From positions 1 through 43,249 of the forward strand of contig JAUCBJ010005838.1 of NCBI GenBank assembly GCA_032718475.1: a stretch of DNA of 43,249 bases, in the 5' to 3' direction. Origin of the DNA: Nemertoderma westbladi (Eukaryota > Animalia > Xenacoelomorpha). The stretch's first letter is position 1. Each line of letters begins with the position of its first letter. A program made the translations under genes and the position numbers. The notes under the pieces were generated by a model, which was not told where the DNA came from, searched no databases, and was given only the letters and a program-made list of their open reading frames with translations. Below are positions 2,447 to 31,146 of the stretch, in pieces.

Positions 2447-2645
2447 TTCAGCAAAGAAGAGCAAACCTATTTCGTATTTTTAACGACACGTGTAAACTAC
2501 CGAACCGCTACCCCTACCCCAGCTGTAAATTTAGTTCTGTTATCAGTATCAGTACAGCAGTAGGCCTACCCCTACAGTATATTACATAAATTAAGATGAA
2601 CCATTAACTTAATTAATTAGGTATATTAACTAGGCCTATTTCATA

Positions 2646-3578
2646 ATGGCGAAACCGAAACTGCGTAACTCAAAGAGTTCCAAAAGTAGAGGCAAACGAT
2701 GGAACTACGCTTTGTATGCGATAGTTATCGCTTCTATCAGTGGACTTCTTTGTTACTATGGGGACCATATACAAATATCAATCTATCATATATTCGAGCG
2801 CCATCTGGCGACACCCGACGGCACTGTAAATCGGAGCCAAGTTGTTCTAGCTTCCGCTTCTAAGTCGGTAGATCTCGCCCATCGCGTAGTAAACTGTTCC
2901 GATGATTACCGCGAGGAGCCGTTCGCAGGCTGCACGCCTACAGTCTGCGGTCGCGGTGTAACCGATACCCTGATCCCACGCGAGATGGCGCTGGTCCTCC
3001 GCGGCCTGGCTTCACGGGGACTCCAACTCGGAGGATCCTCTGGTGGCGTCTCCGTGCTCAACCTCCACACCGGGGCGCTCTCCTACGACGATAAGTTCGT
3101 CGACGTCTATAAACTCATCCGGAAACGTCCCGATTCGGCGACCTACTTCCAGCCGGAGGCCCTCGAAGTCTACGACGAGACAAAAAGGAAGATTAAGCTC
3201 CGGATCGCGAACCACTTTGGCGTGGATCCGACCAAGTTGTTCCTAACGAGTCCGACGTTCTTCTCTCGGATGGAGGGGAAACCGGCACGAACTCTTCACG
3301 ACGAGTACTGGCACAGCCACGTCGACAAGGTCACCTACGAATCCTTCCATTACACCGCTCTTCTCTACCTATCGGACTACGGAACCGACTTCCACGGTGG
3401 CCGTTTCGTTTTCGACGATCTCCATGGCAACACGACTGTGGAACCTCGTCTCGGAAGGGTTTCCTTTTTTACTTCCGGTTCTGAGAATAAACATCATGTT
3501 GAACGCGTTACAGACGGGTTGCGTTACGCCGTTACAGTGGCCTTTACTTGTGATCCTACTAAGGAACTGTTACAATAG
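2646..3578 (+). CDS. OGFOD3: 2-oxoglutarate/Fe(II)-dependent oxygenase, OGFOD3 family, N-terminal membrane anchor, intronless
   Basis: Basic N-terminus plus TM segment (YALYAIVIASISGLLCYY). Family motifs GCTPTVCGRGVTD, GGSSGGVSVLNLHTGALS and LFLTSPTFFSR. HxD in EYWHSHVDK, distal His in ENKHHVE, 2OG-binding Arg in GLRYA. Confidence 0.9.
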   Translation: MAKPKLRNSKSSKSRGKRWNYALYAIVIASISGLLCYYGDHIQISIYHIFERHLATPDGTVNRSQVVLASASKSVDLAHRVVNCSDDYREEPFAGCTPTVCGRGVTDTLIPREMALVLRGLASRGLQLGGSSGGVSVLNLHTGALSYDDKFVDVYKLIRKRPDSATYFQPEALEVYDETKRKIKLRIANHFGVDPTKLFLTSPTFFSRMEGKPARTLHDEYWHSHVDKVTYESFHYTALLYLSDYGTDFHGGRFVFDDLHGNTTVEPRLGRVSFFTSGSENKHHVERVTDGLRYAVTVAFTCDPTKELLQ

Positions 3579-7347: not shown

Positions 7348-10274
7348 TTAAGAATACTGTGCCGGCTTATCTACAAAATTGCACCGCCACAACTCCCTAT
7401 CACCCATGACATTTGCTAGATCATCCGCATCATCAAGGCCAGTGTCCTTTAAGATGCGTCTCAAGAAAGTCATGTGCTGTCCACCATGCTTATTCACTCC
7501 ATGAGGCTGCCAAAGTACAAGATTATGCACTGGCTGGTCCTCACGGCGAAAGCAATGTCCTGCAAAGCGGAGGCGATTTTGTTCTAGTGTCAAACTTGGG
7601 GGAACCAATGAGACACCGCCAATGTTATATAGTGTCTGGTTGGAGATGTGTGCATTGAACTTGACACAATGAACCCGGCGTAGCATTCTTGTGAATGTGC
7701 CGTCCAGCGATTTGGTGTCCTCAGCAGTTAGAGCCCAGCATGGACTCCCATAGAGGAGTACTGGAACTACTGCTGCTCTAAATAACCGGACCTTAAGTTT
7801 CCGATTAATTCACGGTGACTTCCAAATCCTGGAAAGCCTATTCAAGGCTGCCCATGCCTTTCCCTTACGTATTCGAAGGTCCTCACCTGACTTCCGGTTC
7901 CATGATCTCAGGTAACAGAAGTCATCCACATGCTCAAGCATACCATCTTTTGAGCTTATGCTCATCCGATCAGAGACTTGCTGAGGACTTTCAAAGTTAA
8001 CTGTCAAAATTTTGGTCTTTCTGGAGTTAATAAAAAGACCAACACTAGAAGCAGCATGTTCTAATGAGCTGAGTGAGGAGCCGTTGGGCTCCCTCTAGTG
8101 ATTCTGAGAGTACTCCTAAGTCATCAGCAAAGTCTAGATCAGTTAGATACTTGGCAGGATTTCCTCGACTTCTGGAGCCAGTAGGTAGAGTTATCATCAC
8201 CCCATCATCATTATGATGATAGGACATGCGTAGAACATAGTCAACAACAATTATGAACAAGAATGGTGCAAGTGTGTCTCCCTGGAGGACGCCCCATAAC
8301 ACTTCAAATGGTTCTGTGTCACCGTCAACAGTAGACACAAATGTTGTCGAACCATCGTATACTGATCTGATTGCTGCAATAATTTCATCAGGAATCCCAT
8401 ATAATGAAAGTATGATGAACATACGTGAGCGAGTGACTGAATCAAAGACCTTGAAGAAATCAACAAAGATAACAGCCAGATGCCTGTCTTTCTTTTTTGA
8501 TAACTCTTCAATTATCTTTCTAAGTGCCAAAATGGAATCAATGGTCCCACGACCTTTACGGAACCCATTCTGATTTCCACGGAGCAGTCTCTCAATGGGA
8601 TCCCTGATGCGATTTAATATAATTATATTGTATGTATAGCTTTGCAGCAATCGAGATCAATGAGATTCCCCGAAAAGAACCATGGAGTGTTAGGTTGCCC
8701 TTCTTGGGAACTGGTACCAACTTATTTGTTTTCATTTCTTGTGGGACTCTTGTTGTATGTACGGTACATGTCTACTATGATGGGATAGATGAGCTTTAAA
8801 CACTCAGGTATTTTAAAGACCTCAGGGGGAACACCATCTACTCCACTGGCACGATTGGTCTTAATGCTCTTTGCAGCAGCCTTCACTTCTGCAAAGGAGA
8901 TATCACCAATGGGAATATCTGGGAGTACAGACTCAGACACTTTTACTTCTATAAAGTGATCAGGCAATACCATGTCATTATTGAGGAGCTTTTCAAAGTG
9001 GGCCTTCCAACCATTGAGGCGATCGGCTGGTGATTCAGCCTTAACCTTGGTGGTTGGTTGGCTTTTTCGACCAGCAAGCAAGTTGATCGATCTCGATGCC
9101 TGGGTTGATTGCCTGCTGTCGTCAGCATCATTGATGGCATCAACCTGTTGGTTTATTAGCTCCTGTAAATTAACAGAGTACTGCCTGTTCAGGGACCTAG
9201 ATGCAGCCTTAACTGCATTCTTGGCCGCTGTAGTCTGTTTGAGTCGGGACTCTTTCTGCGTCTTGTAGAGGTCATTTCGGCACTTCTGAATTTTGTTGTC
9301 ATTCCAGGGGGCCCGTTTCCTGTTTCGAGGGTATACAGGAACTGTTTCTGCAGCTGCTGCTGCTAACTTAACTGCCTCTGTGAAGGCAGTATAGTCCTAC
9401 AGTGATCTGCCGCCTCAGAGGCAAGAGCCTCATACCTGTTGCTCAGCTGTAGTGTGAAGCTGGATATCACACTTGGCTGTTGCAACAGGGAGGACCAGTC
9501 ATGCCGCGGCAAGGCAGATTTCGTTGTTCTGCTAGCACGCAGACTAAGTCTTACCTTGGCCAGAATAAGGCGGTAATCACTGGAGAAGGGTCGTAGTGTA
9601 AATGCATTACAGTCTTGTATAGAGCTCCTGTATTTCCTACGAAACAGGATATGGTCTATCTGGGATTTGTGACCACTGGGTCCACTATGAGTCCATAGCT
9701 TTCCAGTTCGCTTCTTGAACTGGGTTCCAGCCGAAAACAATCCATTTCCAGAGATAAAATCCTGAAGATGGACGGAATTTCGGTTAACACTATTGCTATA
9801 GACCCAGGGCGATGTAGGTGAATGATGCAGACTTACATTAAAGTCTCCCAGGAATGTTAAGAATGCATGCTGATCCACTCCATCAGTAGCTGCTTGTAGA
9901 AATTTTCCACCTCCTCTACAGGGGCAACACTAGTTGGAGAGTAGCACACAATCAGAACCACCTTAGGAAACTTCTTAGCCAGTCTACCAGAACATGAGAA
10001 GTGGCAACGGATGATGCGGTTAGAGATTTGGTCTATTTTGTCCAATGCTGCATGTGCAGTTGAATTCATCAATAGACCAATTCCACCATTGCCACTATCA
10101 TCTGCTAAAGCGAGGGCGAGTCGCCAACCGCCCCCCATGCCCTTAATCAGAACCTCATCAGTCTGTCCAGTCTGCATTCGGTGCTCTTGAACACCCACTG
10201 CACTAAGAGAAAGCTTATCTGCCAAGGCAGTCAGCTCACCCGAGTGTTAGGGTGTTTACTGAAGCTAGTCTAGT
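7348..10274 (-). pseudogene. RTE ORF: APE endonuclease plus reverse transcriptase, several frameshifts and stops
   Basis: APE motifs VGVQEHR, VCYSPT, LGDFN, QIDHIL, SDYRL. RT motifs QNGFRKGRGT, FVDFFKVFDSV, GVLQGDTLAPFLF, DLDFADD. RTE-type C-terminus RLRFAGHCFR. Confidence 0.9.
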
Positions 10275-10814: not shown

Positions 10815-11081
10815 TGTGAGCGGATTCAATTCCGCCTCACATAACCCCCATAAAGTAGGGAAGTGGCGCCTTTAAGCAATATTGGGGAGTACGAGGTTGA
10901 TTACAATCAACCTCGTATCACCCCCAATAATGCAGACAACACACGGCCCCAAAGAGCCACAGAAAAGAGGTTATAGGTCAAATCTCTTGGGAGAGGGAAA
11001 GTAGCAGCAGCGGGGGGGAAGCACTCCCACAGAGGTGGAGGCGAGAAGTGGGATAACAACCAATGGGAGAGGAGAGCATCC
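10815..11081 (+). repeat. Element B 5' LTR, left part
   Basis: Matches 32312-32578; interrupted at CATCC by element A. Confidence 0.92.
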
Positions 11082-12688
11082 TGTTCGCGGTATTTCAACT
11101 TTCCATAACGCGAGTTGAATATTTTTGTATTTATTTAAAATTGATTATTCCGATATTACTACTGGGTGCGGGACCATGGGTTTTGGGCACATTCAATAAA
11201 CTGGGGGCGATTTATGGGCGAACTTTGGGGCAACTTACAGGGTACGGGAATAATTTCATAGTTATAAGGGCCAGGGGGGATGGAAAATGCAAGCAGTATT
11301 CAGGTTAGCCTGAGTACTATTAGGCCCTGGCCAACTTCCTGCTGCCTGTAGGGGTGGATTTGGTAATGCGCCAGGCCTAAAGGACAAGGACTGCCCTTAG
11401 CGGTCCCTGGCCAACGGCAGCTACTACGAGACTGAAAAGAACTCGGAACGCTGACTGCTTGTGTCAGGGATTTGCGACGGGCACCGACGGCCCCTTAGTA
11501 GCCAAGCCGTTCTGGTTCTCGATGATCGAACCCCGGGGTTCGTGAGGGGTGGAGCGGACACGCGAACAGGTGGCCAACTAACGACTGCCCCCTGACCTAA
11601 GCCGTACTGGTTCTCGATGACCGATCCCTTCGGGGTTCGTGAGGGGTGGGACGGACATGCGAAAGGGCTGGCCACAGGACTGGTTTGACAAGGACTGCCC
11701 TTAGCGGTCTCGGGTCAACGGCAGCTACTACGAGCCTGAAAAGAACTCGGAACGCTGACTGCTTGACTGGGATTTGCGACGGGAACCGACGACAGACCCC
11801 TTAGCCAAGCCGTTCTGGTTCTCGATGATCGTTCCCTTCGGGGTTCGTGAGGGGTGGAGCGGACACGCGACGGGGTCGAAAGACAAAGGACTAGACTCGA
11901 CTAGACTCTACCGGCCTACCGACTGTTCGGAGCAGTTTCTCGGCTGCCGAAGCGACTACGAGCCTGAAACGGACTCGGAAAGCCTAGGTGGTTGGGTTTC
12001 TGTGATGAACTGACGGACCCCTAGCCAAGCCGTTCTGGTTCTCGATGATCGAACCCTTCGGGGTTCGTGAGGGGTGGAACGGACACGCGAACGGGTCCAC
12101 CGACACGACAGACTCCTAGCCAAGCCGTACTGGTTCTCGATGACCGAACCCTTCGGGGTTCGAGAGGGGTGGTACGGATACGCGACAGAGTCTACCGACT
12201 GGACCGACCCTTAGCCAAGCCGTGCTGGTTCTCGATGATCGTTCCCTTCGGGGTTCGTGAGGGGTGGAACGGACACGCGACAGGGTCGACCGACACCGAC
12301 ACTACGGCACTAAGACTGGGACTGAGGGAAAATCTGAGGAACATTAGGTAGGCTAAAATTCTGAGCGAACAGTGGGTTATTAAATAATATACCGTAGGGA
12401 TTTATATTATCGTGTATAATTATTGTGAATATTTGGTGTATATTGATTTGGGGAAGCCCAAAATTATTCTTAATCAGGGTTCAATATTGTTGACAAGGTT
12501 CAACAGAGTTCAGTTACATTAAAGAGTATATCCAACTAATGCAGCTTTTTCTCAACCGCAACCCTGCATCTCAGAAATCATTCCTTCTCCACAATCAATA
12601 TCCGGTGACTGGCCGGGGCTCGGTGGTCTGTTAAGTCACGTCTCCAGCATCGGCGTTTTTCCCCCCTGGTGTAGGAATAACGGCAACA
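11082..12688 (+). repeat. Element A 5' LTR
   Basis: Direct repeat of 23886-25492. Confidence 0.95.
11386..12292 (+). repeat. Array of structured repeats inside the LTR (six ~85-nt K-turn-like modules, three GNRA hairpins, two CTGCC/GGCAG hairpins); duplicated at 24190-25096
   Basis: Core AAGCCGTTCTGGTTCTCGATGATCGAACCCTTCGGGGTTCGTGAGGGGTGGAACGGACACGCGA near 11504, 11599, 11807, 12027, 12122 and 12217. Confidence 0.9.
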
Positions 12689-12690
12689 AA

Positions 12691-12703
12691 ATTAAGAATA
12701 ATT
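12691..12703 (+). promoter_or_regulatory. Non-tRNA primer-binding-site candidate (self-complementary to the LTR)
   Basis: ATTAAGAATAATT, 2 nt after the LTR end, is the exact reverse complement of LTR 12462-12474. No TGG-initiated tRNA PBS at this position. Confidence 0.55.
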
Positions 12704-12942
12704 AATGCGGTTAATTTTGACACGGTGTCAAAATTAAGAATAATTATCGTGGTCAACTTCAACTGGTGGAAGTTGAGAATCCTTCAATACTCTTCAAAAA
12801 CTCTCTACGTGCTTGCCAGCACCCACTACGAGGAAACTCTGGTATTTGAGTTGAGACAAAGTCGTGGTTTAATTAATCAGCAAACTCGATCTAACCAACT
12901 CGTAGTCGGCAGATCACATATTTGGAGAGTTGTTAACAGGGA

Positions 12943-13134
12943 ATGGAAGTATCGATCACACCCATTGATATAATTCAAGTTGAGCCAGGAATCTGGCACG
13001 TCGAAGTTGAGGTACAAGGAACGAACGTCGGACGATTCAGGATTACTGTTCGGGTGGTTCAAGCTGAGTACAATACCTACGAGGAACTGTTTTACGACAT
13101 CGCGTATCTCGCCATCGACGAGGCGTTACAATGA
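12943..13134 (+). CDS. Small acidic 63-aa ORF upstream of gag, stop overlapping the gag start (ATGA)
   Basis: ATG at 12943; TGA at 13132-13134 overlaps the gag ATG at 13131-13133. Confidence 0.4.
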   Translation: MEVSITPIDIIQVEPGIWHVEVEVQGTNVGRFRITVRVVQAEYNTYEELFYDIAYLAIDEALQ

Positions 13135-16100
13135 CAACAAATAACGTATCCGATACCGACGAGATGGATCACCACACAGACTCGGAAGCCGACGAGGTAC
13201 CAAACGTCAAAAACATGACCCGTCGGTTAGGGGCTCTTAAAGGCGGAGTAACCCGAGCGTATCAACGGATGGAGAAACAACTCAAGGGAGTCAAAACCCC
13301 CCTCAATGAGGTACAAACTCAGCTTCAAAGTATCCGAAATATCCTACAGCGGTACGAAAGAATGATACAGGCGTACCAAGAGCTCGTTCCCCCCACCGAT
13401 CTGGAAAACTACCCCAAGCTGGAAGAACACGTTGTACATTAGATGGGTTCCGCAAACAACACCGGAGGACCCTCAGCCTTGTGAGAGGCTATGAGGAACA
13501 GTATTACAAGAGGGCTGAAAGAACAGACGCGGAATCAGTACGATCCTCCAGCATCAGGACAGGAGTACATCGCAAGAGAATGGGGTCCACCAGAAATCAG
13601 CACTCCAGCGCTAGGAGCGAGATATCCGGCTCAGCGTGCAGTTCTCAAGGGGCGCCGCCACTCCGAGACCAACTGCGAGAGCGGAAGGCATTAGCCCTCA
13701 AAGCTCGGATGGAAGATGAGTATATTCAACTGCAAGCCGAGCAAGATGTATTAGCTGCAGAAACCCAAAGGCGAGAGGCCGAACAAGCGGCCGAACGGCA
13801 GGCCGAACAACGTGAACAGGAAGCCGAACAACGCAGGCGAGAGGACGAACAACGCAAACGAGAGGACGAACGACAGGCCGAACAACGCAGGCGAGAAGAC
13901 GAACAACGCAAACACGAGGACGAACGACAGGCCGAACAGCGCAAACACGAGGCCGAACAACGCAAACACGAGGACGAACGACAGGCCGAACAGCGCAAAC
14001 ACGAGGCCGAACAACGCAAACAGGAGGCCGAACAACGCGGACGAGAGGCCGAACGGGAGATCGAACAACGTAAATGGGAAGCAGAAATGCGTAAACAACA
14101 CGCCGAGGCCCAAGCAATTCTCATCCACAAAAAGAACGCGGATATTGCAAAACTCGCGGAATACGAAGCCGCACTTATAGAACGAGATATTCAACTCTAC
14201 GAGGACTGGGAGAGGGATATAGATCAGGAATATGAACCAATCCCGGTACCGGAATTAGAAAAGTCATTTATACCGACAGCGGCGAAACTTCCGAAACCCG
14301 AAATCCCGCCTACCAAACAGTCTACGCTATCGGCACAAGCACCGGTGTTCCATCCACCACCGGCGACGCTAAAGAACGAGGAACCTTATTTCCCATCCAA
14401 CACCACGACAGCGAGTGTACCCAAGTACGAGCCTGAAAAGGACTCGGAACGGGACGCCACTCCCCGATCAAACAACCCATTTACATCAACACCACAAACT
14501 CGTAGCCGCGTCATTATTAAAACTCCGCCTATCATTGATCCATCAAGTATGGGAGTGAGTGCCAATAACTATAACCCTCCGAGTCACTCCAGTTCAGACG
14601 ACGTCAGCATCATCCGGGCGTTGGAGAACCGCCTTGCCATGCCGAAGATGGAGATTCGCACCTTCGAAGGAGATCCCGTCGATTACCTCAGATTCAAGAA
14701 ACGGTTCTTTGCGCAGATTGGATCAACGGACATAGCCGACGCACAGAAATTGGTATATTTATCGCAATACCTGGGTGACAAACCCCGCAGAATTGTTGCA
14801 TGTTTTGAAGGAGGTTCTCATGAGGCATACTATGACGCATGGAAAACTCTAGACAAAAGATACGGAAATACCGGAACTATAATTAATAAAACTCTAGAGA
14901 GACTGATACAGGATGCAGGATCACTAGGGGACCCACAGAACATACAGGAATTCTCCGACTCTATGAAAGATGCCTATTATACTCTGAAGCCCTTAAATAA
15001 GGAGGACCAGGTGAACAACATTCTAAACCTCCGACAGATCGCCCGGAAGTTCCCCGGATGGCTACAAAGTAAGTGGGCTTATAAATGTGTAGATCTCCGG
15101 CGCAGACATCCAGATCGAGATCCTAGCTTCCTTGAAATGTCGGCATTCCTGGACGATATCTCCGAAGCCATGAATGACTCGATGTTTTCAAAACAAAGTC
15201 TCGCAAAGTTGGACGGAATAGAGAGCAACTCTAGGAGTAAGATAACCCCTCCGAAACCAAGATTCCGCCCCCCACCGGTAAGTACGATGGCCATCACCAT
15301 GGCTGAGGATTCCGACGACGAAGACTACGAGGAACCGACATCCGCCAAGGAATGGGCATGTTATCTCGCGAATTGGGCCCCCGAAAGGGAAGGCGTCACA
15401 AATTCCCTACTCTGTCTCTTCTGTGGGGAGAAACATAAAGTGGAATTCTGCAGGAAGTTTCAGTTCGCCGAACTCGTCCCACGTTTCGAGGCGATAATGA
15501 AACACCGAGGATGCTTCCGGTGTCTTGGAACAGGTCACTACGTTCGGGATTGCGACCAAAGGTCGTGCTGTGCTGTCTGTAACGACCAACGCCATCACAC
15601 GCTCCTCCACATCCCCGCGAACTTCGACTTTACTACCCTCCCCTTTCGGATCGAAGCCAGGCGAAGAGGAGAAACAAACCACGTCTTCAAAGGAACCCGG
15701 ACAACCCAACGGAGAGAAACCAACCCGTTTAAAATCTCCACCGCTACACCACAAGTAACAAATATTTCGGCCACGATTAATCTTATAAATCGCCGCTACA
15801 TGGTTTTCGCAAAGGTAATCCCAGTAAGGATCCAAGGAGTCGGCAAATCTTTGACGACACTCGCATTCCTCGATAACGGGTCCGACGGAACCATCATCGA
15901 CCGGGATTTTCTCGAGCAACTCGGCCTAGAATATGAGCCTTGTAAACGGCCCATACAAACCATCACCGATAACAGAGAGGTAGAGTCCGGGGAGGTGCAA
16001 CTCCAGATGGAAGGAGTGATGAAGGGCTACGAAACGGCTAAGTTAACCATAAAGAACGCCTTGGTACACACAGACCTCCGGGTGCGGTTCCGACAATCAG

Positions 16101-19100
16101 CCGAGTACGCCCCCCTCATACAATTGGACCGGGACGATGTAGACCTGAGGTGTCCGCAGTTGGACGTAAACCGTATCACCCTACTGATCGGACTTGATAC
16201 ACCGGAACTACACATCCCCACCGGAGATATCGCCCGATCTATAAACCAGGATGACGGATTTTATGCTGAACGAACAATAATGGGATGGACACTCTGCGGC
16301 ATTAAGGAGGAAACCACGGACACCTATACCTACCTTCCCAAATGTCAGATTAAAGAGAATGTAACCTCCGTGGGTTACTGCTCAGCTTCGGATCTCGACG
16401 AGGATTTGTTTCTGGAAACCGAGAAAACCCAACGAGAGATGACGAAATATTTTAATTTGGAGACCCAGGAGTTCGCGGAAAAGGACGAAAATCCATCCGA
16501 AGAGGACCAATATTGTATGGACGTTCTCGACCAGGCCACGTTTAAAGACGGACACTGGAGTTCACCTATGTTATGGAAGGACCCAAACAAACCAATGGCA
16601 AACAACGCCAGCATGGCACTTAGGCGACTTAAAGGGATTCTACGCCGGTTGAATGACCAACCCGAGATAAAGGAGAAGTATAACACCGTAATCCAAGGAT
16701 ATCTCGATGATGGATTAGCAGAAATGGTACCACGGAACGAACTGCAAGGTGGTAAAAGAACATATTATCTCCCGACCCACTATGTAGTAGAAGCCCGCAA
16801 AGGTGGGAAAATCCGAGTGGTAAATGATGCTGCCGCTATATACCAGGGCGAATCCCTAAACAGTCAACTTTATACGGGACCCAACATATATAGCACACTC
16901 ATCGGCGTATTGATCAGGTTCAGGGAAAACCGGGTAGCATTCACCTGTGACATCAAGGCCATGTTTCATCAAGTTCGTACATTACCAAGAGACTCGGACT
17001 GTCTACGTATCCTATGGACGGATAAAACGCTTACTCAACAGGAGATTAGCCAACTCACGATAAAGGACGTAGACATAATGCGTATGGTCGTCAGGATCTT
17101 CGGCGCTAAGGACTCGCCGGTAGCATGCAGTGACATGCTAAAGAGGACGGCAACCAATTGCGAAAACGAGTTCCCTCCAACCGTCATAGAAACCATTCGA
17201 CGATGCTTCTACGTGGACGACGGATGCGCTGGCGCGGATAATGTAGATGAGGCGTATCAGCTAGCAATGGGGATGGTAGAATGTCTAAAGAAAGGAGGGT
17301 TCCCACTCGTGAAGTTCAGATCCCACGACAAAACACTTATGGAAAAGTTTCCGGAGGATATCCGGCTGGAAAATAACAAGATGTATTCGGAGGATGTGGA
17401 ACATCGTGTACTCGGGATTGAATGGGACATAGAATCAGATGAATTCATCTTCAAATATAAACCCCTACCCAAGCCTATGACAAAAAGGGGATGTTTGTCG
17501 ATAAAAAGTGCAATCTTCGACCCACTAAATTTCATATCTCCAGTAACCTTGGCCGGAATGAACCTGATTAAGGAAATGTGGATAGAAGGACTGGGATGGG
17601 ACGAAGAGCTTCCCCCATACCTTAGCGTCAAATGGAGAAAATGGACGGAGCAACTCGAACACCTACATCTTATGCGGATACCTAGACCGTTCTTCCTCGA
17701 TAAACTGCCCACCGATATCTTCCAGCTCCACACCTTTTCGGATGCTTCAAATACCGGAATCGGCGTAGTAACCTTCTTACGGAGACTAAGTAGCGATGGA
17801 AACGGCGATACAAGCTTCTTATTCTCCAAAGCAAAGACGGTATCCGGGGAATTCGTAGCAACGATTCCGAGACTCGAGCTACAAGCTGCAGTTTGGGCAG
17901 TAAGACAGAATCGCATGGCCATGCGGAACCTACGGATCCCCATAGAATCTCAACACTTCTGGGTAGATTCGAGTATAGTTCTCTATTATCTCCACTCTCC
18001 ATCACGGCGTCACACCACGTTTGTTGCAAACCGAGCCACAGAGATTAAACAGTGTACCGGCCGAGAACAGTGGCATCACGTAAACGGGAAGGAAAACCCA
18101 GCGGACTAATCAAGCCGAGGCGCCACCCCAAAACAACTCGGTAAAAGTAAACTCTGGCTTACAGGCCCGGAATTCCTACGGCAGCCACAGTTAACATGGA
18201 GTACCCGATTCGACCCCGAACTCGATAGCGGAAAATACTCCGAGGACGATAAAGAGATTCGTAAAATCCATCGAAGCAACGCGGTGGAAATTTATAGTTG
18301 CCTGACTGAGCCTGCAAAGGACTCGGGCAGGCACTATAACGTCGCGACGATCACTCAACTAGCGACGTCTTTACATCGGTTGATCGAGCGAACTTCATCC
18401 ATGAGACGGCTCGTCCACCATGTTATAACCCTTCGCAACTTCCTACGGTGGAAAAACAACAAACCGATAGTTCAACGGAATATACAAGAACTCATTATCG
18501 CGGAGAAGTGTATTGTTAGATATGTCCAGAAAGAAAGTTTCCCCGATGAATGGGAACAACTTAGTGCGGGCAAAACGTTGAAACCGGACAGCCCAGTCTA
18601 CCAACTAAGACCAATGATGGGAGAGGACGGACTGATCCGACTGAATACCCGGATGGCAAACGCCCCGGTCGAATATGAGGTTAAATACCCGGCGCTCTGC
18701 CCGGAACGTCGACACTAGCTAAGCTATTAATTCTACAATGTCACGAGGACAACCACCACGCAGGACAGAATTGGATTATAGCTAATATAAGACAAAGATA
18801 TTGGATCACCCATATCCAGCCACTGATCCGGAAAGTGTTGAAACGTTGCTTCACCTGCAGACGTTACCTAGCGCCACCAATCACTCAAAAGATGGCCGAC
18901 TTACCAGCCACCCATCTACAAGCGGATTCCCAGCCATTCTACGTCACCGGGGTGGACTGTTTCGGACCGTTCACGGTTATTGAACGACGATCCAACATCA
19001 AATGCTGGGGAGCCATCTTCACCTGCCTGAGGTCTAGGGCAATTTACCTAGATATCGTGGTAAATCTGACACAACACGCATTCATCAACGCTCTGCGTCG

Positions 19101-19916
19101 GTTCGTGGCGAACAACGGGACATGCCACCACATGTATTCCGATAATGGTACAAACTTTGTGGGAGGAGAAAGGGAACTCAGAGAGGCGATCGAGGGATGG
19201 TTTACCGATAACACACCGCATCCCAAGTCTGGAAGGAACACCAGATACAGTGGCACTTCCAGACCCCCTTAGCCCCCCATACGAGCGGGGTATGGGAGAA
19301 ACTGATCGACCTCGTGAAACGATCCATGCGCGTCGCTCTAGGCGATACCCGGGTAACCCATGATACCCTCCGCACAACATTCTGCGAGATCACGGCTACC
19401 CTGAACAACCGACCTATTGTCCCTATCCGCGACGACCCCACAGACCTGGAGCCCCTCACTCCTAACCACCTACTGGGGAGACCCAAAACCCACGTTCTCC
19501 CGGAAACCATGTTCCCGGATCCCAACGAGATCGCGAAGCATACAAACTGGAAAAAGGCCCAAGCGTTGGCAGCGCATTGGTGGAGAATTTGGGCCCAGGA
19601 ATATCTCATAACCCTCCGGACCAGGAGAAAATGGAACAACACCTACCGGAACGTCGCAGTTGGCGACATGGTACTAGTTAAAGAAGATCTCAAAGACCGC
19701 GTTCACTGGCCTGTGGCGCGGGTCGTGACCATACACCCAAGTAAAGACGGACTTGCGAGGACTGTGACGATACGAACGGCAAAGGGCCACTACCAACGCC
19801 CTATCCAGAAGCTGTGCCTTCTTGAAGGCAATGACAGTGGTGATTCTACGAGAGGTGATAAGATCCCTACTCAAGATCCTGCTGTGGACATTGGTGACAA
19901 TTACAAATCTGTGTAA
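13131..19916 (+). pseudogene. BEL/Pao gag-pol polyprotein, disrupted by frameshifts (~13439, ~18715, ~19230) and a stop (18107-18109)
   Basis: DUF1759-like PKMEIRTFEGDPVDYLRF. Zn knuckles CLFCGEKH, CFRCLGTGHYVRDC, CAVCNDQRHHTLLH. Protease FLDNGSDGT. RT RVVNDAAA, DIKAMFHQV, FYVDD. RNase H LHTFSDAS, TIPRLELQAA, NPAD. Integrase HEDNHH...CFTC, VDCFGP, SDNGTNFVG, APHTSGVWEKL. C-terminal WAQEYLITL. Confidence 0.95.
13770..14100 (+). repeat. Coding tandem repeats (EQRK/EDERQA coiled coil) in gag
   Basis: Repeated GAGGCCGAACAACGCAAAC-type units. Confidence 0.85.
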
Positions 19917-20191
19917 CCCTTCTCATCATGTTGACAAACTCTTATAAACTGTGATTTATCGACAACGAATTATGGACCCCCTTTAAACAACTGTAACCAC
20001 GCAATGGTATTTGTGTTTCCTCGTGTGTTATGTGGAGTCCAGCATCACCCTGCAGATGTTTCGACTGACGCAGGGTCGTTTATGTATTGTTTACCCTGAT
20101 TTTGGTCATCAGGACCTACGATATTGGATTATTGGAAATGGAAAAGATTTGAAGTGGAATTCATTGTATTCATTGCAGTATGTTATGTTGT

Positions 20192-20610
20192 CCGTTGCGT
20201 GCGCAGTTTGGGGCGTAGGCGGTGTAACGAGTCCAGCTGTAGATCCTGGATTGCCGCGCAACACCCCCTCTATCCCGTTATTCTGGTGGGTCCATGGTGC
20301 ATCCACATGACTTCGACGATAGAGGGTTTTATGTTTCTCAGTCGCGTTATTCTGGTGGGACCGTTACGTGGATTTTGGGGCGTAGGCGGTGTAACGAGTC
20401 CAGCTGTAGATCCCAGAATGTTGCGTAACCCCATCCCACATGACTTCGTCGACTGAGCTTTATGTTGTTGGGAGTGTTATTCTGGTGGGTCCCTGGTGCA
20501 TCCACGTGACTTCACTCCTAGCGTCTTCATTGTCCGTTACGTGCGCAGTTTGGGGCGTAGGCGGTGTAACGAGTCCAGCTGTAGATCCCAGATTGCCGCG
20601 TAACACCCCT
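20192..20610 (+). repeat. Interleaved structured repeats between pol and the accessory ORF
   Basis: Motif X TTTGGGGCGTAGGCGGTGTAACGAGTCCAGCTGTAGATCC x3 (20207, 20375, 20549). Motif Y GTTATTCTGGTGGG...CCAC[A/G]TGACTTC x3 (20277, 20346, 20476). Confidence 0.9.
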
Positions 20611-21163
20611 TCCACGACAAAGATTAACCAAAGAAAATGATTGAATATAGTTGGAAATGATGAAAAGGATCAGACAACTCTACTATAAACCTGAATGATG
20701 ACGCGTATGCTGATGAAAATGTGATGATGCGCACCCTGGTGCTGCGCTTATAACAAATGATGATAGCCGGGGGGCTATAAACCCAATGATGATGTGGAAA
20801 TAAATAAATGTGAAATAAATGGTGGAACTAAATGTTGAAATATATGTGGAAATAAATGAAATGAAATGAAATAATAATGAAAGGAAAAAAGACAAAAAAA
20901 AGGTATAAAAGAGGTCAAAGAATATAATTGGAAAAAAAAAAAGGACAAAAAAGTCATAAAAAACTGGTTGGATATTATGTATAGCTATAGTAACTGTAAA
21001 TGCTGAATGTATTAGCAATAAGATGATAGATGCCTATATAGCAATGTTATTTAATAAACTGAATTAAATAAAAAAAAACTGAATTATTCTGCTATCGCTA
21101 TAGTTTCAGACTTTCTGGACTTATAATTAACTGAACTAATTTGTAACGGATATAATCGTAAAT

Positions 21164-23719
21164 ATGGACCCAAATCGCCAAATTATCGGCGAATTACGTA
21201 ACACGATAGATCTACTGGAATATTCGCAACCCGGATCCCCTGACTTTGATACAAATTGGAGCATTCTGCTAAATGAGAACGTATGAGAAGTTAAATTCAC
21301 CGGGCGAGAGGGACCGGATTCTAAGAATCTACGAGCCCTCCGGTTAGCCGATGCTAGTACGAGACTGAAAAGAACTCGGAACGCAAAGGCAACCGGAGGG
21401 GACGATTCGTCGTTTTGGGAAACGTTCCGGCAGAACGTCTACAGATCCCGATGTTTGATCTACGACAACGAGGGAAACGCGACGCCCACCTCGAAAGCGA
21501 TTACGTTGGCGAGATGTCAAAGTTTCGTCGACGACAAGAGTACGTACCTAGCCCACTGGGGAAACCTGTCGGAGTGTACGGCGAAGCTTCGAGAGGAACG
21601 CGTATCGATTATCCAAAACCGCGACGACTACCAGGAAAAGTACGGGGCGAAAGAATACGGTCGATCCTTAGTCGTCGTCCTCGGAACCCTGGACGGTTTG
21701 GTACTGGTGTGCCGAATATTCCCGACACCCAGACAGGAAGTGCAGGCAGCCGGAGCGATCTGGTTGCTGCCTCCGGAAATCCAAAAGATCCTCTTCGACT
21801 TCGACGTCATTAAAATCGGGTCGGATATCAAGGCGGACGTCCGGAACGACTACGCGAACGCTCCCGCAGGAAGAAACCGACGAAACGACCTCAACGCACT
21901 TAGCCATTGCATCGACACTCAAACGCTGCTAGCCTGGTTACGATTCGCCGAGTTCATGCGAGGATTCCAAGAAGTGAGACCGACGAAATCCGGGATCGGC
22001 TACCTCGCTGTGCTCAACGGCGGTATCGACTTCAAACCCCAGAAATTCCGGGACTATAATAAAATATACGGCGGATACCCGGGATTAGAGATAAAGAGCG
22101 AGCGAGAGGGTCGATGGAAGGACGTCGATCGGAAGTGGACGATACACCAAAGGTGGGAGAATCCCGATCGACGGAGCTATATCTACGTCGTTATGGAATG
22201 CTACACCGTCGCTAAGTTTATCTGTAAAACTCTCGATAACCTTATTACGGCGGTCCCCCTTTCCTTCGTCGACTACGACTGGAACGAGGTTATAAACCAC
22301 GCGTTTAAAGCGGTCGAGAACATTACACCGGGAGAATCAAAAACGCCCGCCGTTATTGATTCCTGGGACGAGAGCGGACCTTACGACATCCCTACGATTA
22401 CCGAACTTCTCGGTGCGGAGGAGCCTCTGATCTCCTCGGAAGGGGAAGAGATATGGCTAAACGAGGGTGTTCTACTCTCCACCCCGAAGCGACAACTCGA
22501 GCCGGAGGCCGCGTACGGACCGGCCGCCAAACGGGTCGCCTCGGCCGAACCGATGAAGAGAGCAGGCGTCTACACCCCACGCGGCTCCGGTAGCCCCGCG
22601 AGAGAGGTAGCCACTACGGCTGCATTGAGCGACTTCGGCGACATATGCCAACGGTTATCCCCGTATCCTTTCCCGGGCGGCGAAGATTGGTTGTCGGAGA
22701 TTCCGAGTACCAGCCACCAACGGACCCGCTCAGCGATACTGGTCGAGGAAGGCCCCAGCGATGCGCCGACACCCGACGATCTCCTCGGTATCCCTCCGTC
22801 GAAAACCCCGGCACCTCTTCGCCGACCAGCGGTGGCTACTACACCCGCCGTTCCTCAGGACCCTATGCGACTAACCCGTTGGTACGCCGAGCAAACTGAA
22901 TGGATCCACCGCCAGAAACGGTCATCCGAGTTGAGACCAGCGGGACACAAAGAGGGTTATCGGAGCGAGAACATACTACGCAAAAGCCTAGCATTCCGCG
23001 GGCTACCGACCACCGAGAATATTCCGAAGAGCGACCGACGACTCGAATACTACGTCGGCGTCCCGATTCCGATATTCCCCGGTCGAGAAACGCAGTTGGA
23101 GGTATGCGGCGACTGCGGCTCGGAGCAGTGCCCACGCGGCAGAAGGAATCGGGTTACCGATTCTTGCCTCCAGCTCCTCGGGATACTCTATTGCCCATAC
23201 TGCGCGATATCGGGCCACGACGTTTCGGTCTGTCCGATCCTTTATAACCTCTGCACCACGTGCGGTTTCCGTGGACATTCCGCTATGGGCAATATGGTCA
23301 CGTTTGAGACATACGCAAACAGCCACTTAAAGACCAAGTTTCGGAGAAACACTCGGAATATCGCGCAGGAGATGGCGTGCGGATATTTCTCCTTCCCGGA
23401 ACGCCTCCACACGTCGGCCTCGCTACCCTTCCATTACGTGGATCTGCTACTGAGCGCCGGATTATTCGGTCCATTCGAAGTTATTAGACGATTATACTCG
23501 TATAAAGAGGAGTTCGGTGACGGAGAATGGTTCCTAGAGGCACGCAACTCCGAGTTGGAAAGACGAACCGACATGATCCCGATGCCTTCGAAAGGAAGAG
23601 CCGCCAGGAGATAAGCCGAAGCGTTACTCACAATGGATGTTGACGCTCCTCTACCAGCCATAGCGATCGATGAGAGTCGACGGGCGAAGAGACGAAAGGC
23701 GTACCAGAAAAAGAAATAA
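21164..23719 (+). CDS. Accessory ORF of element A: DEDDy-type 3'-5' exonuclease, disordered linker, CCHC zinc knuckles and basic tail; in-frame stops at 21284 and 23612
   Basis: ATG 21164 is in frame with the 719-aa ORF. ExoI-like IYDNEG. WRN/EXD-like LLPPEIQKILFDFDVIKIGSDIKADV (ExoII), CIDTQ, KSGIGYLA and WENPDRRSYIYVVMECY (ExoIII-like). CPYCAISGHDVSVC and CTTCGFRGH. Reading through 23612 adds ...RRAKRRKAYQKKK. Confidence 0.75.
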
Positions 23720-23885
23720 TGGATTGGGATATTCCAGGAACATTTATCGAACATTTATTTTTATACAAACTCTAGGCCAAATTAATTAAAAACTATGCAA
23801 TATTAAATTTGTGATTTTTTATATTGGGAATGACCTACGCAAACTCAATCGACCGACAGACTTCACGAAGGTCATTGGGGGGGAC

Positions 23886-25492
23886 TGTTCGCGGTATTTC
23901 AACTTTCCATAACGCGAGTTGAATATTTTTGTATTTATTTAAAATTGATTATTCCGATATTACTACTGGGTGCGGGACCATGGGTTTTGGGCACATTCAA
24001 TAAACTGGGGGCGATTTATGGGCGAACTTTGGGGCAACTTACAGGGTACGGGAATAATTTCATAGTTATAAGGGCCAGGGGGGATGGAAAATGCAAGCAG
24101 TATTCAGGTTAGCCTGAGTACTATTAGGCCCTGGCCAACTTCCTGCTGCCTGTAGGGGTGGATTTGGTAATGCGCCAGGCCTAAAGGACAAGGACTGCCC
24201 TTAGCGGTCCCTGGCCAACGGCAGCTACTACGAGACTGAAAAGAACTCGGAACGCTGACTGCTTGTGTCAGGGATTTGCGACGGGCACCGACGGCCCCTT
24301 AGTAGCCAAGCCGTTCTGGTTCTCGATGATCGAACCCCGGGGTTCGTGAGGGGTGGAGCGGACACGCGAACAGGTGGCCAACTAACGACTGCCCCCTGAC
24401 CTAAGCCGTACTGGTTCTCGATGACCGATCCCTTCGGGGTTCGTGAGGGGTGGGACGGACATGCGAAAGGGCTGGCCACAGGACTGGTTTGACAAGGACT
24501 GCCCTTAGCGGTCTCGGGTCAACGGCAGCTACTACGAGCCTGAAAAGAACTCGGAACGCTGACTGCTTGACTGGGATTTGCGACGGGAACCGACGACAGA
24601 CCCCTTAGCCAAGCCATTCTGGTTCTCGATGATCGTTCCCTTCGGGGTTCGTGAGGGGTGGAGCGGACACGCGACGGGGTCGAAAGACAAAGGACTAGAC
24701 TCGACTAGACTCTACCGGCCTACCGACTGTTCGGAGCAGTTTCTCGGCTGCCGAAGCGACTACGAGCCTGAAACGGACTCGGAAAGCCTAGGTGGTTGGG
24801 TTTCTGTGATGAACTGACGGACCCCTAGCCAAGCCGTTCTGGTTCTCGATGATCGAACCCTTCGGGGTTCGTGAGGGGTGGAACGGACACGCGAACGGGT
24901 CCACCGACACGACAGACTCCTAGCCAAGCCATACTGGTTCTCGATGACCGAACCCTTCGGGGTTCGAGAGGGGTGGTACGGATACGCGACAGAGTCTACC
25001 GACTGGACCGACCCTTAGCCAAGCCGTGCTGGTTCTCGATGATCGTTCCCTTCGGGGTTCGTGAGGGGTGGAACGGACACGCGACAGGGTCGACCGACAC
25101 CGACACTACGGCACTAAGACTGGGACTGAGGGAAAATCTGAGGAACATTAGGTAGGCTAAAATTCTGAGCGAACAGTGGGTTATTAAATAATATACCGTA
25201 GGGATTTATATTATCGTGTATAATTATTGTGAATATGTGGTGTATATTGATTTGGGGAAGCCCAAAATTATTCTTAATCAGGGTTCAATATTGTTGACAA
25301 GGTTCAACAGAGTTCAGTTACATTAAAGAGTATATCCAACTAATGCAGCTTTTTCTCAACCGCAACCCTGCATCTCAGAAATCATTCCTTCTCCACAATC
25401 AATATCCGGTGACTGGCCGGGGCTCGGTGGTCTGTTAAGTCACGTCTCCAGCATCGGCGTTTTTCCCCCCTGGTGTAGGAATAATGGCAACA
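23886..25492 (+). repeat. Element A 3' LTR
   Basis: Direct repeat of 11082-12688, preceded by a G-run PPT. Confidence 0.95.
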
Positions 25493-25497
25493 CATCC

Positions 25498-25822
25498 ACT
25501 AGGTACAGAGGCCAAGATACTGTAAGATTAGCCAATGTATATATTATATTGCATGCAGTGAAGTTATTCAGTTATTCCATTCATTAGTGCAGTTAGGTGA
25601 CATTTTCGTACCGTCACCATCATTACCGGTCAGTAGCATCTATATTACTTAACTTATCTTATTACCGTCACCCAGTCAACTGTGCTATTATATCTCATTG
25701 CCGTATATCAATCAACCTGTAACAGCATATCAATATCAGAACAACAAACTATTATCTTCTTTCACAACGAGCGGCGACGCGTAACGAAAACAAACCAGTC
25801 GGGATCCCCTGATCCCATCACA
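25498..25822 (+). repeat. Element B 5' LTR, right part (TATA-like ~25538, Inr-like TCAGTT 25568)
   Basis: Matches 32579-32903; 267+325 = 592 bp reconstitutes the LTR. Confidence 0.92.
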
Positions 25823-25887
25823 GTACGAAAATCTAGACAACTGCTAAAGCTGTGACTGCCAGCCACCAACAAAGAAAGCGTTAAAGG

Positions 25888-28800
25888 ATGAGCGAAGCCC
25901 AAAACCTAGAGGGAGAGACGACACCGTCGCTGACCCCGGACGATACCAACGAAACGATCCATGAGGCCACGACGCGACGGTATTGACCCGCAATGCCGGA
26001 CTCGCCGGAACGGGACGATCCGGTAGCCCAAGCGGGGGGCGGCCGTCTACCAGGATGAGGGAATGAGTCGACGCACAATGGTGATCGACGTACCGATGTC
26101 GCCGGCCAGCCACAGGCCGAGGGCGACGGACGGCCCACCAGAACGGCGACGGTGGGGCCGCCGGTACGACGCCAAACCAGGAGGGGAGGAGGAGAGGTCA
26201 GCGACGAGGATGTCGGAACCAGTGACCGGCTCTGATGAGCCTACAACGCAACAAAGAAACAACTCAAGGAGGCTAGAGAAGGAGTAAAGATAGATCAAGG
26301 GAAGTTGAGCCGGCGACTAGGTGAGTCGAATAAACACTTCAACTAACTAGTTCGCTTCGGGCAGGGAGAACTAGCCAGTTAGAGAGCGAGGGGGGTCGCC
26401 ACCGAACTATTTGAACTGTGGCGATCTGGGATAATGGAGCCACAGATAGTGTACATAGGGCTGTATTTAGTGGATGCTAGGGGAATTAAGTTAGTGGGTT
26501 GGGCAGACCCGCACGAGGGCGAATCCGAGATTAACCCCGAGGATTCGGTCTCGTCGGCTAGCGAGAACCCCAGAAAGCGGGGGAAAGTTAGTAGGACAGA
26601 GAGGCGACGGGAGTCCATCGCAACCGACAAGTCCGCTACATCCTCCGCAAAAGCAAGAAGGGTGTTAGAAATAGATCCGGCGTGTCAGTTGGATATGGTG
26701 GTGCTAGACCAGAAAGAGTTAGAGAGGCAGTTGGAAGAGGGAACTGCGTTGTTGGAAAGAGAGAGAGAACTGGCGAGAGAGAATAAAGAGAGGGCTGAGA
26801 GGGTCGCGAGAAACTTTAGAGAGTGTGAGGAGATATAAATAAGGGAAGGAAAGGAGCGAGAAGAGCGAGAGGCGAAAGAGGCGAGCGAACGTAAGGAGCG
26901 AGAGGCGAAAGAGGCGAGCGAAAGTAAGGAGCGAGAGGCGGAAGAGGCGAGCGAACGTAAAGAGCGAGGGGCGAGAGAGGAGAGTGAACGTAAAGAGCGA
27001 GAGGTGAGAGAGGAGAATGAACGCAAAGAGCGAGGGGCGAGAGAGGAGAATGAGCGTAAAGAGCGTGAGGCGAGAGGGGCAAGCGAGTGAAAAGAGCGTG
27101 AGGCGAGACGGCTTGAGAGGATTGCGAGAGAGGCGGAATTGGCCGAGCAGAGTTTGCGAGAGGATAGGGAGAGAGAGAGAACGGGAAAGCGTGTGCGGGA
27201 TGATATGCACGCCCGGTTGAGGGGGCTTATGCAATATCAGGCCAAACAGAAGCGCAGTTGGGGCTGTCAGAGAGTGAGGCTGGCTCGGGTAGTGTTTACG
27301 AGGAGCCAGAAGTTATGGAAACGTTTGTTATTACCCCACTTACAGGGACCGGACGACATACCCAAGACTGGTGTAACCGTACGGGCGGGGAGGGGGGGGG
27401 GGTAATAATAATACGTTAGAAAACGTTAATATTAATAGTACCGTAGTGGATAACCCTAATCAAACTTTCATTGCAGCAAATAACATTTTGCCCGGTAATA
27501 GTAATTTAAATCCGAATGATCCTAATTTAAATGTAGAAAATGATTCAAATAATCTAGATTCGAATATACAAAATAATTAAATTAATTTAAATTTAAATAC
27601 GCAAATAATCTAAATAATAATCTTACTTCAAACGAACAAAATAACCCCAATTCTAACCAAAATATACGAAATAATTTAAATAATAATCCGAATTCAGAGA
27701 ATAATTCTAATAATTTCAATAATTTCAATAATAATATTGATAACGGGGCTATTAATAATAACATGGAAGACACAGGTGGGCCGGCCAACCGAAGCCTGCA
27801 AGGCAACGTAGTTAGTACGCAGGGAGTAGCGGGGGTGAGTGACCCCGACGGGAGCCTGCAAGGCCACGTAGTTAGGCAGGGAGTAGCGGGGGTAAGTCAA
27901 CCCGACGGAAGCCTGACAGGCTACGCAGTTGCACAGGGAGAGGTGGGGGTGAGTAGAACCAGCCGCAGTAGAGACAGTGCGTCGACTAGAGAGGGGTGTA
28001 GAAGCGAAGTAGGAGGTAGTGAAGTTAGAAGTGGCGAGTGGGGGGGGGGGGGGGCTACGGGCGCCCCACCACGGAAGATTAGTGGCGAGAGAGGGGGAGC
28101 AGAGAATGGAGCAGAGTCAGTGGGGTCGAACTCCGGGAGATTGCCGTCGCCCTGGAGAGACACACCGCACGCCGAGAGAGGGGTACAGAATGTACCGATA
28201 CGAAGACGAGAACAGGAGAGGGGATCGAAGAGAAACTTCCCGATGGGATATAGCTGCCGATCGAGAGTACGGTAGTCGCAGGGAGATTCGAGATTCGAGA
28301 AGATTAAACTTCGGTTCGGGAAGGGCACATGCAGACTGCAGGACATGCTGTAGGACTTACTGCACATACTATTATAGGCCATGCTGGGAGAGATAGTGTG
28401 GCGATAGGGTAGCGCGAACGACGGGATTAGATCCGGGAGTCGCGGAGTACATGCCAGTAGGTAGGCAAGAAGTGGATAGGCTTATATCGGTACCAGCACA
28501 GCAGCATGACTATAATATGCAGGGACATAACATATATCCAGGGGAGGGGAGAGTTATTGCAGATAGATGTATGGGCCCCAATATATTAACATCAACCCCA
28601 GTACCAAACATACCGATGGGGGGGGGGGGGGGGGGACAGGGTGACATTCCCCCATTACATTATCAACAATACACTCAAACAGGAATAAGAACATCGAATC
28701 CCCTGGATGAGGACAGGTCGTGCGACACGGAAATATGGAGGGGGCCGCTACCCCCAATGATATATCCGAGACAGAGAGAGTCAACAGGCCCGATGGGCGG

Positions 28801-31146
28801 ACCGCACCCAACAGGAGAATCTGTACAGCATCCCTCGAACCCATTGGAAGCACAGGCAATGGGAATGGCGGCACTAATTGATGCACTAAAGACCAGGATC
28901 GAGTTACCACCAGTCGAGCCATTTAAATTCGACGGAAGTAGGCCGGAAGAATACCTGCAATTTCGGCGCATGTACAGCAATGAAATATTGACAAAGAACC
29001 TGACGCAGGCGGAGTGCCTAAAATATTTAAAGGTATATACAGGAGGCCAAGCAAGCGTACGACATCGTGAGGCAGTATCAGGGCATCGAGGGCGGCTTCA
29101 CGACTGCATGTAGGGCCCTAGACAGGGAATACGGACACCCAGCCAAGATCATCCGGCAAACCCTGAGGGGTATAACATCGGGTGGCCTACAGGATAACCT
29201 TGTCAGCATAAAGACGTTTGTGAACAAAGTCGAGAAGGCGTTAATCATGCTGAAGACGCTAGACGCGCCATACGAACTCAACGCATCTAATAACATCACC
29301 ACGATAGCGCAGGCACTGCCGATCTGGCTGCAGAGCAAGTGGAGGAAGATCGCCTTCTCCACACGGGAGAAGAAAGGTGCGGAGCCAGGGCTAGAGGAAA
29401 TGTCAAACTTCCTCAACTACGAAGCAGAGTTGATCACAGACCCAGTCTAGTGAGGATAGTTTGGGGAAGGCGCCAAAGACCGAATACAACAGGCCTAAAC
29501 CCGAACATAATCCTGCAGATCCATTCCCGAGAGTAAGACAGTTGCTACCACACGCGGCCACACAGGGGGCTACAAGCCCACAGTTAGCTGGGAGTAGGGC
29601 CACACCGTGGCAGGGACAGAAAGAAAATAACAACACAAATAAGCATAATCCCAACATACCCAGTAGGCCGAGTCCAGATAACCAAAACACTAAATCGGTA
29701 GATATAAACCTACGCGCGATACGTGAGGGACTATACAGGGAACGCTATAATCCAGGATTCGAATGTCAATTACATCAGGACGGAACCCATAAGACCATGA
29801 GTTGTAAGCACTGGCAAGCGTTGCCCAAACAAGATCATATAGCCTACACAGACGCAAACGGACTATGTCATCATTGTGTGGTAGAAGGACACAGATCCGG
29901 AGAGTGTAGAGAAACAGCAATCGGAGACGATGAGACTGGAGGCCAAACAATGGCTACAAGCACCACAGGAGTAAGGAAAAAGAGGAAAGTACTACTCGGG
30001 GTAGTACCAGTGAAGATATCAGGAAAGGGCGGTCGATCAGTAACGACATTAATGCTGGTCGACAGCGGAGCAGCCTTCACGCTGGTGGAGAATTGGGTGG
30101 CCGAAGAGATAGGGCTAAAGACGAGGCCGAATAGGATGGCGGTAACTACCGTCTCAAGTAAGGATGAGGTCCTGGAGATGAGGACGGGGCGGTGCAAGAT
30201 AGCAGCGATAGCACCGGGATGCGATTATGGGGCGACGATCGACCCCATCCACGTGATAGAATCGATAAATATCAACGCCAGGCGACCAACCAACATTGAA
30301 GTCGAACAATATAGATTCCTGGACAGTATCGATTTCTCAATACCAGAGGTGGACGTTAGGAAGGTATCCATTATAGTAGGAATGGACTGCCCGACGGCCC
30401 ACGAGAGAATGCAGACGGTCTTCGGCGAAGACAGACAGCGGGATCCGACGGCGATCCTCACGCCGTTCGGATGGACGCTTAGCGGCCCAGTTAAAACCAA
30501 GATTCCATCCAGGGTGACAGAGACATCAGGGTGCATGTTACCAGGCACCGTAGACGCAGAGGACGAAGAGAAGAAACCGGAGATGGTAGATGAGCCAGAC
30601 GGGGAAGTAACAGTAGGAGAGTGGGCGGAGGAGAATGGATTTGACGTGGAAGACTTAGAGGCAATGAGATGGAACAAGGGTCCCAGCAAGTATTGGTATG
30701 GGGATGGAGAGGAGCAGACGGCTAGATGTCCGGAGGACAACCCGGAGGAGCGGACGGCGAGATGTCCGGAGGACAACAGTCTGGGGGAGTGTCCGGAGGA
30801 GTGTTCGGAGGAGTGTCCGGAGGAGTGTCCAGAGGAGTGTCCGGAAGAGACGCCGGTCCGGTTGAAAGGCATACCGACAAGGGGGAGGTCGAGTAAGAAG
30901 ACAGGATGGAAAGGGATAGGATTACTATTGTCCGTTCTGTTTTATCTATTCTTCCGATTTCTTTTCATTCTACCGCCAGGAGACGATCAGATGAAGGGTG
31001 GCATTTTACTGCCAGGAAATGAGGAAATTAAGAAGGCGGCTGAGAGACCCGACTTTAGGGTGGCAGAAGAGGGAGAAGCAATTCCTAGAGGATTGGAATT
31101 GGCGAAGAGAGGGTGGCGAAGAATAAGAGGACGTATAGGGGGGTAG
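25888..31146 (+). pseudogene. Element B gag-protease remnant, multiple frameshifts and stops, no RT/RH/IN
   Basis: INPEDSVSS, ERE-rich coil, DUF1759-like IELPPVEPFKFDGSRPEEYLQF, WLQSKW, knuckle CHHCVVEGHRSGEC, protease MLVDSGAAFT, PTAILTPFGWTLSGP. Confidence 0.85.

Follow-up and report, generated by a model that had tools for sequence, protein, structure and literature searches.

Priming of reverse transcription by an element's own RNA is already known: it has been demonstrated in Tf1, and predictions of it exist for Tf1/sushi, Tcn1 and plant TAR (Ty1/copia; Houba, Osr-1) elements (excerpt of PMC6317226). In Tf1, the self-primer corresponds to the first 11 bases, with an RNase H cut between bases 11 and 12 (excerpt of PMC7175516). 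For the Belpaoviridae, the ICTV describes tRNA priming at an 18-nt site that pairs with the 3' end of a tRNA-Arg or tRNA-Gly (PMC8742986).

The window analysed here, i.e. the whole stretch of 43,249 nt of Nemertoderma westbladi DNA, contains element A (11082-25492), a BEL/Pao LTR retrotransposon of 14.4 kb inserted within the 5' LTR of a second element, B (10815-32903). We consider it quite likely, from the arrangement of their sequences, that A and B start reverse transcription from a 5' fragment of their own RNA and not from a tRNA. The features of A are as follows.

11077-11081, plus strand: target site duplication of A (5 bp, CATCC), second copy at 25493-25497
11082-12688, plus strand: 5' LTR of A, 1607 nt, TG..CA, with tandem units of ~95 nt in U3
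12439-12444, plus strand: TATA-like motif of A, with others at 12403 and 12415
12462-12474, plus strand: candidate self-primer site of A, contiguous and intron-less, 3' LTR copy at 25266-25278
12510-12515, plus strand: initiator-like TCAGTT of A, downstream of the candidate site
12518-12523, plus strand: ATTAAA of A, candidate poly(A) signal, 44 nt past the site
12691-12703, plus strand: primer binding position of A, complementary to 12462-12474
12733-12745, plus strand: second 13-mer copy (primer binding) of A, within a 42-nt tandem unit, its start folded in a hairpin
12943-13134, plus strand: leader ORF of A, 63 codons, its stop overlapping the gag ATG at 13131
13131-19916, plus strand: gag-pol of A (DUF1759 Gag, protease, RT with YVDD, RNase H/Peptidase_A17, integrase Zn finger, DUF5641)
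21287-23614, plus strand: extra ORF of A, 775 codons, N-terminal part 3'-5' exonuclease-like (lead only), C-terminal part Cys/His-rich
23877-23885, plus strand: polypurine tract of A
23886-25492, plus strand: 3' LTR of A

The two LTRs of A (1607 nt each, TG..CA ends) differ at 4 positions, i.e. they are 99.75 % alike, and A is a young element. Its LTRs, target site duplication, polypurine tract and Pao-type domain order assign it to BEL/Pao (Belpaoviridae); this placement relies on protein domains, the priming trait departing from the ICTV description. A shares with the Belpaoviridae a metazoan host, LTRs, a polypurine tract, the gag-PR-RT-RH-IN order and Pao-type Pfam domains, but the 18-nt tRNA site of the ICTV description is absent from it, its LTR (1.6 kb) and total length (14.4 kb) exceed the ICTV ranges (PMC8742986), and it carries an extra ORF that is not env.

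The first-pass annotation had reported that A lacks a TGG-starting primer binding site and that the corresponding position is complementary to its own LTR, and both observations were confirmed. Positions 12691-12703, which begin 2 nt past the LTR end, are the perfect reverse complement of 12462-12474. This self-complementary primer position is real and non-random: a 13-nt match was obtained in 1/3000 global and 1/3000 local dinucleotide shuffles of the whole LTR (P ~3e-4). No TGG occurs within 60 nt of the LTR end, the first one in the leader (12750) lying 62 nt from the LTR, and ARAGORN predicted no tRNA within the window. The TGG at 12750 was considered as a tRNA site and rejected, given its distance from the LTR, its position inside a hairpin and its lack of conservation (its T is a C in other copies of A's family). 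The leader further contains a second copy of the 13-mer, overlooked in the first-pass annotation, the two copies arising via a 42-nt tandem unit (12687-12728 and 12729-12770) that duplicates the LTR end together with the primer site. This duplication is polymorphic in A's family, other copies having one unit, or two with an altered spacer. Across 12687-12790, each 42-nt unit ends in a hairpin covering the start of the next, and a third, degenerate unit follows. Upstream, TATAT starts at 12439, i.e. 23 nt before the candidate site, and the TATA-like motifs at 12439, 12403 and 12415 are candidate promoter motifs. The TCAGTT at 12510, not recorded in the first-pass annotation, is initiator-like, and the TATA-like and TCAGTT motifs of B are likewise candidate promoter and initiator motifs. 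No GT[AG]AG donor was found in 12300-12790 of A, and no intron was found at the site of either element. A weaker hairpin may enclose the site of A.

The features of element B are listed below.

10815-11081, plus strand: first part of the 5' LTR of B, interrupted by A
25498-25822, plus strand: second part of the 5' LTR of B, with TATA-like 25538-25547 and TCAGTT 25568-25573
25602-25611, plus strand: candidate self-primer site of B (hairpin loop, 6-bp stem)
25823-25832, plus strand: primer binding position of B, at offset 0 from the LTR end
28397-31146, plus strand: gag and protease remnants of B, BEL/Pao-like, non-autonomous
32312-32903, plus strand: 3' LTR of B, 592 nt, differing from the two 5' parts at 14 positions

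B indeed displays the arrangement of A, as had been claimed: 25823-25832 is the reverse complement of 25602-25611 (10 nt, offset 0), a match reached in 6-11/3000 shuffles. The copy of the site in the 3' LTR of B has one mismatch (32691), which had escaped notice. No TGG lies within 38 nt of the LTR end of B, and its best TATA and initiator pair, judged by motif positions only, puts the site ~33-42 nt inside the transcript. The gag and protease remnants matched 21 and 24, respectively, of 80 BEL/Pao loci, and Pfam detected no RT in B. The site of B lies within the 11-nt loop of a 6-bp hairpin (25596-25618). A second polypurine-like run followed by TG was seen at 31210-31225, ~1.1 kb before the 3' LTR, and a long G/A-skewed simple-repeat stretch extends downstream of it.

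A and B resemble Tf1/Tf2 and the Tf1/sushi chromoviruses, as excerpted, in having no tRNA site and, next to the 5' LTR, a 10-15 nt primer position complementary to their own LTR RNA. Tf1/sushi elements belong to Ty3/gypsy, whereas A and B represent a different superfamily in which the complement apparently lies inside the transcript; moreover, it is usually split by an intron in BEL/Pao relatives (see below), unlike in Tf1/sushi. The Pfam search returned no chromodomain for A, and the Ty3/gypsy chromovirus proteins by which the Tf1/sushi group is recognised are absent from it. The three-duplex 'pretzel' of Tf1 (excerpt of bioRxiv 2022.12.06.519325) also differs, since its flanking duplexes were not found in A or B, where candidates were no better than shuffles (p 0.27-0.94); duplex extension was likewise weak (mean z -0.64, 16 sets). 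Under the self-priming rule excerpted from PMC6317226, i.e. at least 10 nt within 0-5 nt of the LTR, A (13 nt at offset 2) and B (10 nt at offset 0) would both be predicted to self-prime, as are plant TAR and Tcn1 elements, which belong to other superfamilies and another kingdom and for which the excerpted text mentions no splice junction. The fungal GalEa copia elements also lack a tRNA site past the LTR and have a conserved hairpin at the site, A having leader hairpins too; the authors of that work, in the excerpt of PMC5445492, found no complementary LTR sequence, whereas one is present in A.

Related BEL/Pao families were retrieved by an alignment-based scan, in which 478 loci qualified and 80 were kept; the RT-RNase H of these is 32-39 % identical. 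LTRs whose end could be set by a direct repeat had no tRNA-type site after them, and an AG preceded by pyrimidine-rich sequence lay immediately upstream of the short own-LTR matches. When any GT was allowed as donor, the best junction was GTAAG in 7/8 families (the eighth being a tie) as compared with 16/369 GT sites. With one rule applied to 25 families, an own-LTR complement of 10-15 nt was found at the primer position in 25/25, the LTR end having been located with help from the match itself in 15/25 and two ends having been set 1-2 nt off. The complement starts 0-6 nt past the LTR end in A, B and all 25 families. In 20 of these it is complete only when a canonical GT-AG intron-like segment of the LTR (71-426 nt) is removed, and in the other 5, as in A and B, it is contiguous, so that the 27 sets comprise 20 split and 7 contiguous ones, with 26 distinct cores. 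None of the 27 has TGG in the first 10 nt of the primer position, and the site ends 3' in AC (24) or AT (3). After swapping of pairs between sets, at least 10 nt was reached in 30/702 cases, 22 of them between kin (8/680 without kin). The covariation among relatives that had been named beforehand as a check therefore extends far beyond A and B, each of the 26 cores being matched by its own LTR.

An independent test was restricted to LTR ends set by repeat boundaries alone, i.e. 12 own pairs (10 relatives, A and B); L015 and L076 were dropped because the repeat was coding sequence and not an LTR end, and L005 because its 11-nt junction match had no adjoining CA. At least 10 nt was found in 11/12 own pairs, all 10 relatives and A having 10-15 nt and B having 8 on the 3' LTR and 10 on the 5' part, as compared with 7/132 swapped pairs (6 between kin) and 7/1032 downstream windows. 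Two of the 47 loci without a match were resolved later, and 23 of the other 45 were examined by eye: 4 (3 further families, with 14-16 nt) were positive, 3 had one matching half, 1 (L077) had a mismatch in the visible half of its site, and the remainder lacked the needed LTR part or gave no call.

On an RT tree obtained by a quick search, with L071 left out and no labelled reference lineages, contiguous forms were scattered among split ones (6 separate changes), as intron loss would give, and in L061 one site is present twice, once with an acceptor and once without the intron. Members of a clade share the downstream half of the site, whereas changes of the upstream half go along with changes of the primer position. 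The branch of A is long, its identity to the loci reaching 40 % at most, so that the relatives' logic is extended to it by inference; the smallest well-supported group around it includes split families. A poly(A)-like hexamer lies between the site and the LTR end in 10/12 cases checked. In A, the site lies 214 nt before the LTR end, ATTAAA is at +44 and the duplex has -9.8 kcal/mol, a geometry within that of the relatives (74-216 nt, hexamer at +12 to +97, -8.8 to -15.4 kcal/mol). In the LTRs of L011, L014 and L046, an AG precedes the donor by 13 nt and, in L014, follows a pyrimidine tract; it possibly delimits a 13-nt micro-exon and a second intron.

We also lean, with less assurance than for A and B themselves, towards a wider reading in which a broad animal BEL/Pao lineage has replaced tRNA priming by a primer built by the spliceosome. 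In both readings, transcription would start upstream of the site, the spliceosome would join its two halves in intron-bearing families, and an earlier intron loss would have left it ready-made in A and B, which would be descendants of such families. The site would then pair with the primer position, at about -9 to -15 kcal/mol, and the element's RNase H would cut after the conserved AC/AT end to give a 3'-OH, as in Tf1. RT would copy U5 and R up to the cut and jump to the 3' LTR, the intron being inherited from the unspliced RNA of that LTR. The primer would be copied in plus-strand synthesis, so that the primer position would be rewritten at each cycle and both sites would stay matched. In the wider reading, with an intron splitting the primer, reverse transcription could be started by spliced RNA only, and the unspliced 3' LTR would hand the intron on. 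Persistence of the introns suggests that the template 3' LTR is usually unspliced and hence that the spliced primer would derive either from the 5' end or from an independent short LTR transcript; contiguous families, A and B among them, would result when the template is occasionally spliced. If spliced primers are copied, the expected trace is a splice junction in inverted copy beside the LTR end, as found in many unrelated sequences, and we see no simpler route to it.

The first-pass annotation had proposed that the extreme 5' end of the transcript folds back and primes the minus strand, as in Tf1. Its tRNA-independent, self-complementary site is retained and is backed by the relatives, the splice-junction nature of the complement in most of them having been missed. 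That the site is the extreme 5' end receives no support: the motif pair of B places it inside the transcript, and 20/25 relatives have an upstream exon and an intron. With TCAGTT downstream of the site in A and the site at about +33 in B, a Tf1-like 'first 11-13 nt' is unproven and the primer may be longer; the start near 12462-12466 suggested in that annotation is likewise unproven and would not be required for self-priming of A.

Among other explanations, priming could occur in trans, a short RNA from within one LTR (5', 3' or solo), spliced if there is an intron, being packaged and priming unspliced genomic RNA. This would be the simplest account of intron survival in 20/25 families and fits both the hexamer after the site within the LTR (10/12) and the lack of a cis 'pretzel', but the repeated precise loss of introns implies that spliced RNA is at times the template and the Tf1 precedent acts in cis (excerpt of PMC7175516); we regard it as improbable, yet worth keeping in view. 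It is clearly less probable that the pairing serves as a conserved RNA structure, which would control polyadenylation in the 5' LTR, translation or packaging or would sense splicing, and that another primer is used. The location of the site inside the transcript, away from any proven 5' end, and the short, AT-rich duplexes would suit such a structure; against it, the partner always starts 0-6 nt past the LTR end, which is where a primer has to end, tRNA-type sites are absent, and the conserved AC/AT end fits a defined 3' end.

For A only, the site might be an unused relic in U3, with transcription starting at TCAGTT 12510, which we hold to be slightly less likely still. TCAGTT followed 8 nt later by ATTAAA would make a plausible short R. 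The contigs of four DNA runs contain many divergent copies of A's family (1312 contigs in X1), and a copy type with a changed LTR site was present in three runs, at loose contig ends. No matching change of the primer position was seen among the 40/109 rows listed, from unphased contigs subject to edge effects, and these contigs lend no support to covariation of site and primer position within A's own family. On the other hand, A is a young element, its LTRs differing at 4 of 1607 nt, it offers no alternative primer site, its match is 13/13, and its distances to the hexamer and the LTR end agree with those of the relatives. Within 12479-12641, 28 places had listed substitutions, whereas both 13-mers were free of any, a weak argument as variants near the ends of a stretch are under-reported. 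That a host tRNA fragment or other small RNA primes, the LTR match being an AT-rich chance, is barely credible: half-tRNA priming exists in copia lineages (excerpt of PMC6317226) and the primer position of L001 begins with TGG, but L001 has a 14-nt match to its own junction, and the shuffle, swap and sliding controls and the 26 distinct cores, each matched by its own LTR, all speak against it.

The literature searched, which includes excerpts of PMC8220671, PMC5443660 and PMC12451622 for self-priming or splice junctions, yielded no report of BEL/Pao self-priming or of a splice-built primer, although subscription papers, supplements and Repbase or GyDB entries may hold remarks; a term look-up in PMC554778, PMC3118150 and PMC12440569 returned no mention of a primer site. 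If self-priming with a splice-built primer is true, the tRNA-primed reference description of BEL/Pao would be overturned for a large part of the group, and a third superfamily would join the self-priming elements. Reverse transcription would be tied to splicing, which was found in no paper searched. It would also account for the missing recognisable primer site in the annotation of such elements and provide a sequence rule to locate LTR ends, R and introns.

Regarding coding content, the Pfam search on A returned DUF1759, protease, Peptidase_A17, Integrase_H2C2 and DUF5641, and the 74 homologs listed for its protein are mostly PF05380, Pao-type, at 26-39 % identity; no relative was found among the viral contigs searched. 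The gag-pol of A is interrupted in gag (13442), by a stop after RNase H (18109) and by frame changes in integrase, the RNase H region being present in one frame. All 5 variants listed for the leader ORF in A's family (5/5) are synonymous third positions, and it therefore looks like a real small protein. In the extra ORF, residues 60-345 show similarity to 3'-5' exonucleases of the DNA_pol_A_exo1 type (Atlas 0.93; 42 % of members carry the family), Pfam gave no significant match, and the single-sequence fold had a pLDDT of 32. DEDDy ORFs occur in rotifer LTR elements (excerpt of PMC5408684); that the exonuclease-like ORF of A might trim the primer is only a guess. The U3 of A (11383-12303; 24187-25107) carries several GC-rich tandem units of ~95 nt, their core resembling a hairpin, and a 47-nt piece related to them is found again at 14406 and 21338. 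Three repeats of ~170 nt occupy 20188-20612, where non-coding sequence separates pol from the extra ORF.

Elsewhere in the window, an intron-less OGFOD3-like host gene (2634-3578, plus strand) shares 45-59 % identity with its homologs in many animal phyla. On the minus strand, 7348-9929 and 38621-40099 contain fragments of elements of non-LTR type, which gave RT and endonuclease matches, and nested MITE-like inverted repeats enclose a 46-nt tandem array at 40102-41558.
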